Shown here: positions 48,042-55,730 of the stretch, one piece after another
How the letters are laid out: each line of letters begins with the position of its first letter
Position numbering within the stretch: position 1 is the stretch's first letter
Source: an uncultured delta proteobacterium
GTDB lineage: Bacteria > Desulfobacterota > Binatia > UBA9968
Assembly (NCBI GenBank): GCA_963816145.1
Contig: CAWFJP010000005.1
Coordinates: 160,001-224,000, forward strand
Direction of reading: 5' to 3'
Length of the DNA stretch: 64,000 nucleotides
Program-made: the position numbers and the translations under genes
Notes under the pieces: model-generated
Seen by the model: only the letters and a program-made list of their open reading frames with translations
Database searches by the model: none
What the model was told of the DNA's origin: nothing

Positions 48042-51000
48042 TGGGACATCGCTTGCCAAATCTCATGGGCCAGCGACTCGATGCTTTTGCTTCCCAGGAT
48101 CTTTGTGGCGGAGATTGCGCAGTCGAAGTCGAGGCGGATCTGGTTCGATAAAACCATGGCGACCATAGAGTCCAGCCCCAAGGCCATGAAGCCGCTCTCT
48201 GCCGTGATCGTCGATTCGGGAAATCCCGATAGTTCGGCGCATTGTGTCTGCAGATAGCGCATCATACTTTGCACACTGGAGATCGCCGTAAGCGGCTCAA
48301 CAATGCGGTGCGAGCCGGTCTGCACCCTGCGTTCGCCGGCGCCGAGGGTTGTTTGATCTCTGGGCGCCGCCACGGCGTCGCGCGTGATCGGCCGCAAACG
48401 GAACCCTGCTAGTTTTGCCACCAGCTGGCCGGCGCTATTCAAAATCGACAGGTCGGCAACAACGTCGTCCGCGCTATGATCGCGCAATCGCGCATGGCAC
48501 CAAGCTTCATGGTGGGTCGACGGCACATCGAACAACATGAATGTATCGACTGAAAACGGCACAAACGTAGCGCCGGTTTTGTCCATGACCTCTGCGGTCT
48601 CGATAGTCGCGCAGCAGTGCAGCACCTGGCAGGCGGCTTCGATCAGGCCGGGATGGAGCCGATAGCGCGAAACATCGATCATCTCGTTCGGGCAGACGGC
48701 GCGGCATAGCGCTTCGCGATCGCCCTGCCAGATTGAGTCGATCCAGCGGAACGCCGATCCGGTGCCACCCTGGTTCGCCCAAATCTTCGAGTAAAATTCC
48801 ACGCCCGACAATGGTTTGCGACAGCGGGCTTTGATAGCGGCCAAAGGCAAAGTCTCCTCGTCAAGGCGCCGATCGCTTGATGGCTGCGAGCGCCCCAGCC
48901 CAATCATATGGGGCGTCCACGCCGCATTGTTCCTCGTTGGCTTCTTGACTGTCGGCGCTGGTGAGTTCCAAGTTCCATCGTTGCTGTTCGGGCCTGAAGA
49001 TGAGCTGAACATCACGCTGACAGCCGTCCGGAAGCAACAGGGGACGCAGCATGTAGAGATCTTCGAATTGAAAAGCCGGGTCTAGTGCGCCGCCAAGGTG
49101 CTCAGCTGCTTGGGCGAGCATCGCAAAATGCGAAGCGGCGGGCGGCAGTGATATACCAAACAGGCGGTGGTCGGTGAGAAAGTGAGGCGAGGTCTGGGTG
49201 AAACGCGATTCAAAACGAATTTCGTTCGAGCCGGGCAAGCGGAGTCGCCTTCCCAGCAAAGGATGATCGGTTGGCTCAGCCGAAGGAGTGGTCGCGAGCG
49301 GCGCGGCGGACGCCAGCGCGCCTTGATACCAATGACGCGAACGTTGGAATGGGTAGCTCGGCAGAGGGACGGGCGACCGGCGCTGGCCGCCTTGAAAAAC
49401 GGCCCAGTCTGCCGGCGCTCCGCGAACGTAGAGACGCGCCAGGGTCTCGAGTAGCGCGATCCAGTCGTTTTCGCCGCGGCGCAGGGTTGGAATTGTTTCG
49501 CTGCCAGGCTTTGACGCACCGTCTTGGTTTGAGTGAGACGAAATACCGTTGGGGCCGACTTCGACAATGATGTCGCACTGTTTTTCGAACTCGGCCCGCA
49601 TCGCGCCTGGGAACTGTCTTGGGTGCCGCATACCTTCGCCGCTGTACTGCTGAACGAGAAACTCGTTCGTCAACGTCTGATCAGATGCTTGGCCGATCGG
49701 TTGCAAAGTGGGATGATGCCCTGGGATTTTGCCGCGGAGATGTTGTCGCGGTTTGCCGGCCGCCAAGGCGATGCCATCCTCCAGGCTCAGAACTCCGGCG
49801 ATGCAGCCGGCCGCAAACTCACCGACGCCCTGGCCGATGAGGCACCGGGGCTCGATCCCGTACCAGCGAAGCAGTTCGGCTAGCGAGTATTGCAAGGCAA
49901 ACAGGGCGGGCTGCGCATACTCGGCGCGCTGCAGCAGATCTCCCGACGCGGCGAACATCACATCGACCAAGGGGCGCTCAAGATGACTGCGCAGGGTTCG
50001 ATCGCAGTCATCGAGCAAGCTGCGGAATTTTCTGCTGGCGCGATAAAGCTCTTGCCCCATGCCCGGATATTGCTCCCCATGCCCGGAAAATGAAAAACCA
50101 ATCGCTAGCTCGCTAGCGGCTTTAGCCCGCCAACGGCCGGACGCACCGTTCGAGCGTTCGCCGCGCGCCAAGCGCTCGCGCATTTGCTCGACGGTGTTGC
50201 CGACGACGGCGGTACGATACCTATAGCGAGACCGACTGCGCTGGCTTGTCGCTGCGATACTGCCGATGTCGGTGCTGGAGTTTGCCGCAAGAAAATCCTG
50301 GTAGCTCGCCTCCAATTGAGCGAGCGCTGGCGCAGATGCCGCTGAGAGCGTCAGCAGGGAAGCGGGCAACTCATCCGCGGTAAAATCATCAACCGCCGGA
50401 GGCGCTTCCTGTAGGACTACGTGACAGTTGGTGCCGCCGACGCCGAATGAGGAAACCCCGGCGATGCGATGCGCACGCCGATAGTCGGTCGGCCACGGCA
50501 GCAAGCGGGTGGAGATCCGAAAGGGACTGGTGTCGAGGGCGATCTCCGGATTGGCTGTCTGGAAATGCAGCGTTGGCGGGATCTCGCGGTTTTTGAGCAC
50601 CAGGACGGTTTTGATCAGGCCGGTGATGCCGGCGGCGGTGTCGAGGTGGCCAATATTGGTCTTGACCGCACCCAGAGCGCAAAAGCCGCGTTCGGTGGCG
50701 GTGCGCCGAAAGGCGCGCTCGAGAGCGGCGAACTCGATGGGATCGCCGATCGGCGTGCCGGTACCATGGGCTTCGACATAGCCGATCTCAAGGGCCTTAA
50801 CCTGCGCGTGCTCCTGCGCCCGCAGGATCACCGCAGTTTGACCGTTGACGCTCGGCGCGGCAAAGCTCGCCTTGTTCGAGCCATCGTTGTTGATCGCCCA
50901 ACCGCGAATCACCGCGTCGATGCGGTCATTGTCTCCGATCGCGTCTGTTAGCCGTTTGAGCACGACGGCGCCGACGCCGTCGCTGAAAACCGTACCAGAG

Positions 51001-53654
51001 GCGTCGATATCGAAGGCCCGGCAATGGCCATCGCGGGAGTGCATGCCGTCCTGGCTAAAGGTAGCGCTGTGGGTTTGCGGAAACGTCAGCGCCACGCCTC
51101 CGGCGATGGCCATATCGCACTGGCCGCTGACCAGTGCTTGGCAGGCTTGCGCGACGGCGACCAGCGAGGTGGAACAGGCGGTCTGAACGTTGATGCTGGG
51201 ACCGCTAAGATTGAGCAGATAAGACGTGCGCGTGGCGATGGAATCGCTGTCGTTACAGATCATGAGTTGGCGGGCTTCATCGGTCGCGCGTTGCAGCAGC
51301 GCATCCACGGCAGCGCGATCGCCGCCGACGAGGTGCCACAGATAGGTGCTTTCCCGTCCGCCCGCGAAAACGCCGATATTATTATTTTCACCGGCAAATC
51401 CCGCTTCGCTCAGCGGCAATCCGGCATCTTCCAGGGCTCGATGCACGCATTCCAACCAGATACGTTGCTGGGGGTCGAGCCGCTGGGCTTCCCTTGGCGT
51501 TAGCCGGAACAGCGCGGCATCGAATTCATCGACATGGGAAAGCACGCCGCGCGCCGCGACGAGGACAGGGGTGTCGTCCGGCGCCGTGCCTTCGTCGGTT
51601 AAAGTAATACTCTCACGCCCGGCGCGCAGATTGTCCCAGAACTGTTCTAAATTGTCGGCGCCAGGAACGCGTCCGGCCATGCCGATGATGGCGATACTGT
51701 GATCGGGCCAAGGGCTCTTATCATGGGCGGTTGTGCTTGGGTGCTTCTGGTCCTTGGGCGGCTGCGGCAGGCCGCCTATGAAGTTGGCCAGCGCACGAAT
51801 CGTGCGGTGTTCAAAAAGACTGGCCACAGCCATTTCCTTGCCGTTCTGCTCCCTGAAGCGAGTGACGAATCGAGCCGCGCGCAACGAGTCGCCGCCGAGA
51901 TCGAAGAAGGAATCGAGCACACCGACATCGTCGATCTCCAGGATTTCCGACCAGAGGCTCGCAATCTGCTTCTCGATCGTGGTTTGAGGCGCGACAGGAT
52001 CATTCGACAGCGGCGGGCGCTGTCGACCCGGCAGCGGCAAGCGCTGGTAATCGATTTTGAGATCGTTGGTCAGCGGCAATGCATTTACAAAGACGAAGGC
52101 GCTCGGCACCAGCGACTGCGCAAGGCGTTCAGTTAGCGCTTGGCGCAGCTGCGTGACCGTCACGCTGGTCTGGGCAACCAGATAGGCGCACAGCCTGCGC
52201 TCGCCGACACGATCTTCGAAGTCGCGGACCGCGCACTGGGAAACTCCCGCAATCCTGAGCAAGTGGCCTTCGATCTCGGCCGCGTCGACAAACTCGCCGG
52301 CGACACGGATGCGCTGATCGACTCGACCGCGGTGAGTCAAGCAACCGTCATCGCTCATGCTGCCCAAATCGCCGGTGCGGTAGCGGCGCATACCGTTATC
52401 AAGCGCGGCAAAGCGTTCGATGCTCAGTTCCGGATTGCGCCAGTAACCGGTTGCAAGATATTCGCTTTCGACGACAATCTCGCCGGTAGCTTCAGGCGGC
52501 AGCTCGTCGCCGCGCTGATCAACGATGCGCACCGTCATGTCCGGCACCGCGTAGCCGATTGGCACTGATTCGGTTTGATTCAACCGAGTCTGCGCGTTGA
52601 TGAAGAACTGACGCACCAGCCCGCACTCGGTTGCGCCCAGACCGTTGACCAGCGTGCAATGATCCTGAAAGTTTGTCTGAAAATGCGCTATATCCAGCGC
52701 CGATGCGCGGTCGCCTTCAAGTCGCACTAGCCGAACGTCTGGAAATCTCGTGACCGGATCCGAGAGTTGGCGGAAGATCGACGGAACCGAGTGAAAGACA
52801 GTTACCCGAGTCCGCCGAAGCCATTCCGAGAGAGCCGAGAAACCATCGCGTTGTAGATCGAAAGGGGCAATCACCGCGCCATTTAAGAGCGCCCCAAACA
52901 GGCTCGAGACCGTACCGCTGAAGCTCGGGTTTTGCACCAGACTTAGAATATCTCCCGGGGCAAACTTGAGTGTGTTGGTGTAGCGCAGGATGTTGTGCAA
53001 GACGTTGCGATGGCAGTCAGCAACGCCCTTGGGCGTGCCAGTGGATCCCGACGTATAGAAAATATAGGCGATGCTTTCAGTGGCAACCAGCCGGTCCAGG
53101 TTCTCGCTGGAAAAGCGATTCAGATCTGCATCAGACGGGATCACAGGAAATCGGCCGGCAGCCAGTTTTCGAGCAAGATCGAATTGATGTCCAGCGCTGA
53201 TTATTGCGCCTGGGCGAAGTTTATCGACCATGTTACGTAGGACGGGGTCGGGAAGGCGCTGGTCGAGGGGTGCGTAACTACTGCCCGCCTTGAGAATAGC
53301 CAAGGTCCAGACAATCGATTCGTCGCTTTGATCGATCAACATCGCGACCGGCCGAGTTTCGCTGGTCATCTTGGCGAGTAGCAGGTGCGCAGCTTGATTC
53401 GCGGCGCTATTCAATTCTGCATAGGTGACGTCGCCTGATGAGCGGCGAATCGCTAGCGCAGCCCCGTCACGAATCACTTGCTGCTCAAAAAGCCGATGGA
53501 TAGGTTGGTGGCATTGATCGGCGGAAAATTCCGAGAAGGCCTCAGGAAAACATAGGTTGTTGCGCGCGTCCAGGTCCCTCATGACAGTTTCGATGGTGGC
53601 TAGGTTGAGTCCCTCACGACCGGTGAATCCGTAAGCATTGCCCGATGCAGCCAA
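48038..53654 (-). CDS. Hybrid NRPS-PKS: A-PCP-KS-AT(degenerate)-DH-ACP; one frameshift near 48935
   Basis: A: YTSGSTGTPKG, YRTGD; PCP: FFDLGGDSL; KS: TACSTS, EAHGTGT, NIGHL; AT: GQGVG in place of GHSxG; DH: HPLLG, HRLFG..LPP, LHPGLIEA; ACP: LGLDSM. Start at 53654 or 53582. Confidence 0.88.
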
Positions 53655-53975
53655 ACGGCGACAAATGTCTCAGGAATAGGCGAGAAAAGTGTTTTGTAAG
53701 TGTGCCATGGTAATTTTGCCCATACCCTAGCTGGCTAAGAATTCTTCCGAGGCGCAAGATATCCACGGGGTCGAATGAAATCAACATCGGGTTGGTAACA
53801 TGATTAATTATGTCTCATGATACCAGAAGCCGTGGTAAAACTCGCGACTTCCATCGAATCGAACTACAAGCCGGCCGTAGCGGTCGATATTACCGCAGCG
53901 CGGCAATTTCGCGGCATCGAAACTGTGGGAATGGTCATCTAAAGGTAGGACCATTGGCGTTAGGAGGGGACGAAC

Positions 53976-55184
53976 TTGACGATAGTTCCGAGCGGCCTTG
54001 AAGGATCAATGATCTCAAAAAGCGCCGGTGGCTTGATCATTTCGCGAGCCGAGCTTAGCGGGCGATTGGCAGATCGTGCGTTGGTGATCGTTAACGTGAT
54101 GCCGGTGGAGTCGTTCAAAGCGGGGCATATTCCCGGTTCCGTGAATCTTCCCATCGCGGACATACCAAGCAAAGCGCGCCAGGTGCTCTCCGATCTCCAT
54201 CAGGAGATCGCCGTGTACTGTGCCGGGCCTACCTGACCGTTGGGCAAGCAAGCGGTCGGCTTGCTCGAAGGCCTGGGTTACACCAACTTGCGCTATTATG
54301 TCGGCGGAATGGCGGAGTGGTCGGAAACTGGCGGACCGGTGGCAGGCCAGAATCAAGCCGCTGCGCCGTCATCGAACAGTTCTAGTTTGGCTCCACGTGC
54401 GTATCGCTTATCTTGGCTGGAAAGGGTTGCCGGTCTTTCACTTGAAAGGCTAGTCGTCCTCTGGCTCTCCATGATCGTTGTTTTCGGCGTGATCTATTGG
54501 GTTGCCGGGGTCGGTATGGGAATGGGACTTCAGGCAGGTGGTAATCTGGTCAGAGCCGATGGCCAGGGTTTCGTCACGGCAATTTATTTTAGTTTCGTCA
54601 CCGCGCTCTCAATCGGTTACGGCGATGTCGTGCCGCTCGGCTTGTTTCGCATCGTCGCGATCGTCGAGGGTGCGGCCGGCTTGCTGATCTTTGGCTGTGT
54701 AATTTCAAAATTGGTGTCGCGGCGCCAAGAGGAACTTACCGAAGAGATCCATCAGACGACTTTCGAAGACCGGCTCGATCGGGTGCGGACCAATCTGCAT
54801 CTAGTCTTCACCGATATTGGCTCGGTGCAGCAGTTGCAAGCGGAACAGGGGGTTCTGCCGGAGCTCGTCCTGCGAAGATTGGAGAGTACGGTGCGGGTAT
54901 TTCGCGGCGAGCTGCGGGCAGTGCATGACTTGCTCTACCGTTGCCGGGTGATGCCCGACGAAGAAACAATGGACTCGCTGCTTGCCAATTTGATCATTTG
55001 CCTACAGGGTTTGACCGATATCGATAATGCTTTGCCGATCCGGTCCTCGAACTTGAACCTGGGACTCCGCTCCATTGGCAACCTCGCCAATGAGATCTGC
55101 GGCGAATGCGTGCCCCACGCTTATGCGCCGGTATTGAAAGATTCGATGGATCAAATCCAAGAACTGGCGCGCAAGATTGCATGA
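53976..55184 (+). CDS. Candidate selenoprotein: rhodanese (YCAGPT-U) fused to a 2-TM potassium channel domain
   Basis: ORFs 53976..54236 and 54240..55184 are in frame and separated only by TGA-CCG. The rhodanese fold spans the TGA (GHIPGSVNLP...VYC / LGYTNLRYYVGGMAEW). Filter motif TALSIGYGD; SECIS-like hairpin after the TGA; AGGAGG RBS. Confidence 0.78.
54237..54271 (+). promoter_or_regulatory. Bacterial SECIS-like hairpin
   Basis: TTGGGCAAGC (54240-49) pairs with GCTTGCTCGA (54259-68); the apical CGGT loop starts after 16 nt from the UGA. Confidence 0.6.
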
Positions 55185-55282
55185 CCATTCCCGCCCGCCT
55201 CATGTGAATTCTTGTTTGCTATCCATTGCCGTGCTATTCGTTGCGACACCAATTGCGGAGGGACCTCCTGGCTTCGGCTTAG

Positions 55283-55583
55283 ATTGATTAATCCCATACT
55301 GTCGTTGATCGCTCTGGTCTTGATGCTTGGCGGTTGCCAAGCTTTGACTGGCGAAACGGTCGGCGAAAGTGTCGACGACACGGGAATCATTACCCGCGTC
55401 AAAGCCGCGCTGGCCGCAGACAAGGGATTTTCACTGACTCGTGGAGGCGTTGAAACCACGCGCGGCGTCGTCCATTTGACCGGTGTCGTCCAGTTGGCGT
55501 CGGATCGCAGCCGCGCAGAACAGGTAACGCGCACAGTGACCGGGGTAAGAGGCTGACCGACAATCTACAAGTTGGGCCGTAGC
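55283..55583 (+). CDS. BON-domain lipoprotein; frameshift near the 3' end (~55554)
   Basis: LGGC lipobox, VDDTGIITRVKAAL, GVVHLTG; restoring one G gives VRGVTDNLQVGP. Start uncertain. Confidence 0.75.
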
Positions 55584-55730
55584 CCAGCCAAGGAGAGCTG
55601 ATTTGGCTGGATTTGGCGGCGGCTGAAGTTTGCATACCTGTTTTTTTGGGCGCCGCTTCCCCATCTTCTAACTTTTGGGTGAAAGGAATTTTTTCTGAAA
55701 GGTTCTAAGTTTCCTGTCGCCGTTGCGGTT

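Follow-up and report, generated by a model that had tools for sequence, protein, structure and literature searches.

Two kinds of protein, rhodanese selenoproteins and ligand-gated K+ channels of prokaryotes, are each already known. The gene described here, in which the two seem to be joined, lies on the forward strand at positions 53,976 to 55,184 of a 64,000-nucleotide stretch of DNA (the window) from an uncultured delta proteobacterium (Desulfobacterota; Binatia; UBA9968; GenBank assembly GCA_963816145.1, contig CAWFJP010000005.1, positions 160,001 to 224,000 of the forward strand). It is annotated there as a pair of genes and is most likely a single gene, encoding a K+ channel whose sensor domain handles sulfur and contains selenocysteine (Sec, U). 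The main text of a 2026 review of the selenoproteome (PMC13188914) gives five forms of rhodanese selenoprotein, namely UxxS, UxxG, CxU, a further UxxG and the UxxxxU form TsoB. None of these five forms is CxxxxU, and the terms channel, potassium, CxxxxU and PF07885 are absent from that main text; its supplementary selenoprotein lists could contain the family. In the literature searched, no channel with a Sec-containing sensor domain was found.

The forms 1, 2 and 4 of the review (UxxS or UxxG, as given in its main text) belong to the same domain family, but there Sec replaces the catalytic Cys, whereas in the present gene this Cys is kept and Sec is predicted at +5. TsoB resembles the gene in that its rhodanese domain carries Sec five residues on from the first position of the active site; it differs in its UxxxxU motif and its DsbD part, whereas here the motif is CxxxxU, with Cys at the first position, no DsbD domain and a fusion to a K+ channel. 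The TsoB model (NF045694) was the best match among the selenoprotein models, covering residues 21-140 at an E value of 7.4e-8, with a score of 30.9 bits (25.5 in another run) against a cut-off of 805. The LYCAU type (NF041203, 'form 3', CxU) is likewise a small rhodanese with a Cys and then a nearby Sec in the active-site loop, but its spacing is C-x-U instead of C-x4-U and it is stand-alone; the score was 18.2 bits (21.9 in another run) against a cut-off of 115. Since these scores are far under both cut-offs, the gene belongs to neither TsoB nor LYCAU. The sequence comparison strongly supports reading it as a rhodanese selenoprotein that is new both in the position of its Sec and in its architecture, that of a K+ channel. 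A second rhodanese-like open reading frame (ORF) with an in-frame TGA was seen in the window genome (L140, G000:C31:513177-513419); its TGA occupies the canonical catalytic site (FT-U-GTGRS), as in the known UxxG type, and it falls under the same organism's Sec system.

On the channel side, K+ channels of the KcsA/MthK type, with two transmembrane helices (2-TM), share with the gene product the Ion_trans_2 pore, the GYGD filter and cytoplasmic domains at both termini. The regulatory modules of those channels are RCK or CNBD, whereas here a Sec-rhodanese and an unclassified helical domain with a CxxC motif would take their place.

Reading frame across the TGA

In the mechanical ORF listing, the TGA at 54234-54236 is the sole separator of two ORFs in the same frame, 53976..54236 (86 aa, TTG start) and 54240..55184 (314 aa), and after it 315 further codons are open up to the TGA stop at 55182-55184. 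Listing and translation thus bear out what an earlier note on this DNA had described, namely two ORFs in one frame with only a TGA between them, and a 402-residue frame running on into a K+ pore and a helical tail. Read through, the frame has 402 residues, with U87 within EIAVYCAGPT-U-PLGKQA. The features of the gene are as follows.

53962-53967, + strand: Shine-Dalgarno-like AGGAGG, 8 nt before the TTG start at 53976
53976-55184, + strand: proposed single coding sequence, 402 codons plus the TGA stop (55182-55184), with TGA 54234-36 read as Sec
54045-54326, + strand: rhodanese-like domain, residues 24-117, extending to either side of the predicted Sec codon (Pfam PF00581)
54219-54221, + strand: Cys82 codon TGT, invariant; in alignments it matches the catalytic Cys of solved rhodaneses
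54234-54236, + strand: in-frame TGA, predicted Sec87 of the C-x4-U loop (from column conservation, Cys in homologs and independent assemblies)
54247-54265, + strand: SECIS-like hairpin (selenocysteine insertion sequence), stem 54247-54253 with 54259-54265, apical loop 54254-54258 (GGTCG)
54465-54719, + strand: two-TM K+ channel pore module Ion_trans_2, residues 164-248 (Pfam and structure model)
54609-54626, + strand: selectivity filter SIGYGD, residues 212-217, invariant in orthologs
54720-55181, + strand: predicted cytoplasmic helical C-terminal domain, residues 249-402, 154 aa (structure model)
55098-55109, + strand: CxxC motif, Cys375 and Cys378, in the C-terminal domain

The Pfam family Rhodanese (PF00581) matched residues 24-117 at 55.5 bits against a cut-off of 22.2, and since the TGA is residue 87, it lies inside the match; the earlier claim that the TGA interrupts a rhodanese domain therefore holds. 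An AlphaFold2 model of the 402-residue protein was built from 13 orthologs (mean predicted local distance difference test, pLDDT, 76.5; predicted template modelling score, pTM, 0.43), in which residues 20-116 form a single rhodanese domain and residues 117-145 a disordered linker. With the N-terminal domain, Foldseek returned a probability of 1.00 for 3nhv, 6mxv and 6bev, and for the best of these, 3nhv, the model superposed on the solved rhodanese with a root-mean-square deviation of 1.5 Å over 99 columns. The solved structure belongs to BH2092 of Bacillus halodurans (PDB 3nhv, 3o3w), a structural-genomics protein without assigned function, which is thus the best structural match and also has a C-x4-C loop (YC-WGPA-C); it differs in having Cys in place of Sec and in being stand-alone.

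Cys82 is aligned with the loop Cys of 6mxv and of domain 2 of 1yt8, and this position is Cys in all 77 distinct Sec-form sequences (77/77). Sec87 would stand at +5 from it, the loop being longer by two residues than that of standard rhodaneses. The placement of the TGA in the active-site loop, as first proposed, is retained in this respect, but Sec is off the canonical catalytic position, since the catalytic Cys82 is kept and Sec comes five residues later.

The TGA is conserved wherever the gene was recovered. A six-frame search of 61 related genomes gave 12 with a match including the rhodanese part, each containing exactly one TGA, and in 12/12 of them it was at the identical column (YC-x4-U-PLG). 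A 13th locus (L044), from named records of metagenome-assembled genomes, also has TGA there, giving 13/13 genome loci, with 52-77% identity to the window copy; the records behind this locus are labelled Syntrophobacter sp., Candidatus Binatia and Deltaproteobacteria. From a metagenome scan, the best 80 of 190 confirmed stretches were kept (61-99% identity), and TGA was found at the column in 80/80 (71 by strict motif and 9 by inspection), with TGC or TGT in 0. The total is TGA in 93/93 loci at 52-99% identity, and because it is common to all 93 related loci examined, the TGA is beyond chance.

The codons around the TGA were compared in the 77 distinct Sec-form sequences. Upstream, Tyr at -6 is encoded by TAC in 39 and TAT in 37, and Cys at -5 by TGC in 58 and TGT in 19; Gly at -3, Pro at -2 and Pro at +1 use four codons each, and Leu at +2 uses six. 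Since the flanking codons vary synonymously while the residues are fixed, the frame appears to be translated across the TGA under selection at the protein level.

The earlier note had named TGC or TGT in independent data as an outcome that would speak against Sec. The contigs of two DNA runs from different studies, X9 (54072-54563) and X14 (53900-54342), showed no difference at 54234-36, although both differ elsewhere from the window copy, so two independent assemblies keep the TGA. These data bear directly on the explanation by a pseudogene or a sequencing error, in which a nonsense change from TGC or TGT to TGA would have struck this one copy of a Cys-form gene. Other broken genes are reported for the window in the earlier note, and the neighbouring BON ORF changes frame near its 3' end, which would fit such an origin. 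Against it, the same column holds TGA in 93/93 loci and in none TGC or TGT, the two assemblies agree, and no decay is seen downstream, where 315 codons are open and the filter is invariant; its chance is negligible.

More distant homologs show what replaces the predicted Sec. An exhaustive HMMER search with the rhodanese domain gave 9490 matches at E <= 1e-3. Among the best 150 matches there were 24 single-stretch proteins; 21 were fetched, and 23 were aligned with the query (alignment A3), while P0169, apparently frameshifted after the pore region, was left out and reads Cys at the column too. As the earlier note expected, the column is Cys in 19/20 of the aligned proteins that reach it; the other one has Ser (P0213), and the remaining three aligned proteins are ORFs of 80-87 aa stopping just before the column. 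Five Cys forms of 372-452 aa (P0197, P0258, P0252, P0261 and P0269) have the rhodanese domain, Ion_trans_2 and the CxxC tail in one uninterrupted ORF; Pfam was run on four of the five, not on P0261. Because these five Cys proteins share the architecture, the fusion is taken to be an established family, of which the window clade is the Sec form. Cys-form fusions had seemed absent in a word-index search with residues 1-135, which proved to be a sensitivity limit, as they were found by the exhaustive HMMER search.

A reading as two separate genes would take the TGA as a true stop after an 86-residue peptide and have the channel start independently just downstream. A possible TTG start is available at 54240 in the window copy, directly past the TGA; the best 120 of 1154 database matches are all called as proteins of 231-321 aa starting past the TGA, and the three ORFs of 80-87 aa ending right before the column are on record. 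However, the rhodanese fold requires both halves, as judged from the Pfam match at 24-117 and from the model with its superposition on 3nhv. The Leu at +2 is TTG in only 29/73 sequences and otherwise CTN or TTA, so a TTG start at this place is not conserved. Selection acts at the protein level, and in a single frame, on the residues to either side of the TGA. Channel homologs beginning as a separate gene, which the earlier note had considered, were not the pattern found either, since the rhodanese part is kept upstream of the TGA in 13/13 genome loci and the Cys forms carry rhodanese, channel and tail in a single uninterrupted ORF. Only a small chance is left to the two-gene explanation.

Selenocysteine machinery and the downstream hairpin

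The machinery for Sec, whose presence the earlier note proposed to check, is complete in the window genome, with selA (616 bits), selB (417 bits), selD (380 bits) and tRNA-Sec (74 bits) all above the curated cut-offs. The three genes are neighbours on contig 30, selA and selB lying directly upstream of selD, and tRNA-Sec is found about 10 kb further along the same contig, downstream of selD. The selD gene (L010, G000:C30:565877-566803) has its own in-frame TGA in the N-terminal site AAG-U-AAKLGPGDL. Among the relatives, selA is present in 56/61 genomes, and in 11/12 of those carrying the channel gene. The channel gene itself ends in TGA in 9/11 complete genome copies, so TGA is a normal stop here.

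Decoding of the UGA as Sec would probably be directed by a downstream hairpin presenting a G-U apical loop at about 22-23 nt from the UGA. A 10-bp hairpin had been put forward in the earlier note and is seen in the single-sequence fold, but the conserved helix is of 7 bp and in another register. As a conserved SECIS, the 10-bp register was rejected, the AAGCAAGC repeat that enables it being absent from most orthologs.

Counted from the U of the UGA, the 7-bp helix pairs positions 14-20 with 26-32 around a five-base loop, and its statistics were taken on 66 distinct 48-nt sequences. Standard pairs occupy 93.9% of 462 cells, against 21.6-46.8% after a shift of the partner by 1-3 columns. Changes on both sides occur in 11 cells, and this number, or the observed covariation score, was reached by 1 of 500 shuffles. 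The pair 18-28 is GC in 28, GU in 26 and AU in 10, with no A/C, and in one locus (L122) the pair 17-29 is switched from A-U to G-C, with two amino-acid changes, one on each side. In the apical loop, G22 is found in 65/66 and U23 in 66/66. The SECIS of E. coli fdhF needs G23 and U24 in its apical loop, and the hairpin here is within one base of this. Val94, which encodes G22-U23, is Val in 76/77 Sec forms against 4/20 of the Cys- and Ser-form homologs. In the 3' arm there is less synonymous variation, Leu at +9 having G at the third position in 73/74 while the next Leu uses six codons, and Gly at +8 is GGC in 50/56. After the UGA of selD in the window genome, G-G-U is found at 22-24; the fold is ambiguous there, and this observation is given little weight.

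Several points weigh against Sec decoding or against the part of the hairpin in it. No Rfam family was found for the region (54150-54350, E up to 10), where only a chance match to a long non-coding RNA appeared. The 86-nt region is no more stable than shuffled sequences (z = -0.27). The RNAalifold consensus of the 66 sequences does not contain the 7-bp helix, giving a weak 5-pair structure of -1.13 kcal/mol, and the pair 15-31 is unpaired (A/C) in 10/66. The coding constraint of the conserved K-Q-A-V-G-L overlaps the hairpin and confounds much of its conservation. Apart from the hairpin, selA was not found in G009, a carrier of the gene that is 93% complete. The Ser of P0213 means that neither Cys nor Sec is obligatory at the column, and no Cys form was found among the close relatives (the best 120 of 1154 database matches), so the pairing of Sec with Cys rests on homologs of 32-45% identity. 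The RNA evidence consists of short metatranscriptome contigs only, with 2-5 differences, none of which has 31 nt on each flank of the TGA. From run X20, three short contigs fall on the gene; run X1 covered 4/30 bins. The X20 contig over the TGA is no proof of a transcript across it, because it covers the TGA with a loose end, less than 31 nt on each side.

With its pairing and covariation set against the Rfam result, the stability, RNAalifold, the A/C pair and the coding overlap, the conserved 7-bp hairpin is graded as a likely SECIS rather than a proven one.

The failure of Rfam and RNAalifold to recognise the hairpin, and the comparative nature of the case for Sec, would also suit a read-through of the UGA that does not involve Sec, either by near-cognate insertion of Cys or Trp or by a lineage-wide reassignment. 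But TGA is a normal stop in these genomes and ends this same gene in 9/11 complete copies, the Sec machinery is complete, with selD carrying TGA at its known Sec/Cys site, and homologs have Cys at the column, which is what Sec would predict. The chance of such a read-through is very small.

The TGA at 54234-36 is thus very likely a Sec codon, as judged from comparative evidence. Overall, the locus is best explained, with good confidence, by one membrane protein of 402 residues in which UGA 54234-36 is decoded as Sec by SelA, SelB, SelD and tRNA-Sec. The Sec reading of the earlier note is supported; the independent assemblies, the machinery, the homolog column and the matter of separate starts were the points on which that note said it could fail, and none of them refuted it.

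Channel module, C-terminal tail and a possible role in gating

Ion_trans_2 (PF07885) matched residues 164-248 at 49.6 bits against a cut-off of 22.5. In the model, TM1 spans residues 156-181, a pore helix spans 196-211, and TM2 runs from 224 as a long helix into a helical bundle. By its profile match and its GYG-type filter between two predicted TM helices, the pore module is of the K+ channel type. For the tail (residues 249-402), no Pfam family matched, and a search of the protein atlas gave no usable match. Its CxxC motif is kept in 11/11 Sec-form orthologs reaching the tail and is invariant in 8/8 distant Cys- and Ser-form fusions.

A mechanism can be outlined from these parts. With two TM helices, both termini would be cytoplasmic. 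The Cys82/Sec87 pair could accept sulfane sulfur or form a selenenylsulfide on oxidation. Its state could then reach the pore gate, perhaps through an exchange with the CxxC tail, so that the K+ flux would follow the redox or reactive-sulfur state of the cell. A redox theme is also seen in the invariant CxxC of the distant fusions and in one relative, P0188, to which a peroxiredoxin domain is added. As a side effect, the full-length channel would be made only with selenium available. A predicted complex between the rhodanese part and the C-terminal domain of P0258 (Cys form) gave no answer (score 0.00) and is neutral evidence. It is tentatively proposed, as a possibility, that the protein is the first selenoprotein ion channel, the opening of which would be set by a selenenylsulfide or persulfide switch of Cys82-Sec87 together with the CxxC tail, so that membrane potential and K+ and osmotic balance would follow reactive sulfur and redox, and synthesis would depend on selenium.

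The gene product could also be a genuine selenoprotein in which the rhodanese domain is a membrane-tethered sulfurtransferase, a selenium-handling enzyme or a structural module, and not a gating regulator. Stand-alone C-x4-C rhodaneses of 109-140 aa exist, so the rhodanese domain can act alone. In three distant Cys forms (P0188, P0199 and P0201) the filter is degenerate, with SYGD or SYGE for GYGD, which suggests that the membrane part may sometimes be a mere anchor. Ion_trans_2 was undetected in P0188, the one of the three that was scanned; this protein of 565 aa has an extra C-terminal AhpC-TSA peroxiredoxin domain (2.8e-25), and P0188, P0201 and P0199 may be non-conducting redox proteins derived from a channel. 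In the Sec clade, on the other hand, filter and pore are invariant, and every fusion has the CxxC tail together with the rhodanese domain. Moreover, where 2-TM K+ channels carry a cytoplasmic sensor domain at the N terminus, it usually controls gating. A role outside gating is considered unlikely, though it carries real weight.

If confirmed, the gene would extend the prokaryotic selenoproteome by a Sec position (C-x4-U) and an architecture that are both new, and a systematic annotation error, seen in the best 120 of 1154 matches called from past the TGA, would be corrected. It would also provide a tractable natural system for the gating of an ion channel by redox or sulfane sulfur, for which the natural Sec, Cys and Ser variants offer a comparison.

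Distribution and neighbouring genes

Besides the window genome, the 61 genomes searched include 11 of its genus that carry the Sec clade, which was found in a second genus of the family as well. With this query, no match at E <= 1e-30 came from 400 further genomes sampled over the phylum, so the clade was found only in these two genera. Wetland, soil and sediment metagenomes contain near-identical DNA in 19 runs, which belong to 18 studies. The clade is common in metagenomes of these environments, and the top database matches annotate the truncated channel only; the source names among the best 120 of 1154 matches were 'potassium channel LctB', 'ion channel', 'potassium channel family protein' and 'hypothetical protein'. 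In one genome of the same genus (L034, G003:C19:297414-297653), only a fragment of the gene was seen, covering residues 248-327 with an in-frame TAG, which may be a decayed copy.

Downstream of the channel gene, one further feature was recorded.

55212-55556, + strand: BON-domain ORF (Pfam BON, 4.2e-11)

Of the 77 related loci with 450 nt or more of sequence past the gene, 45 have a BON homolog on the same strand within 600 nt downstream, a hint of a link to the envelope or to osmotic conditions. In the window, the BON ORF (55212-55600) stops early at the TGA of 55554-55556, while another frame continues to a C-terminus (LQVGP) like that of the BON proteins of relatives; this frame change of 1 nt near the 3' end could reflect a true indel or a fault in the assembly. 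Directly upstream of the channel gene, on the opposite strand, there is a hybrid ORF of 1597 aa resembling nonribosomal peptide synthetases and polyketide synthases (48861-53654, - strand), in the translation of which adenylation, carrier, ketosynthase and acyltransferase-like parts were recognised by eye.

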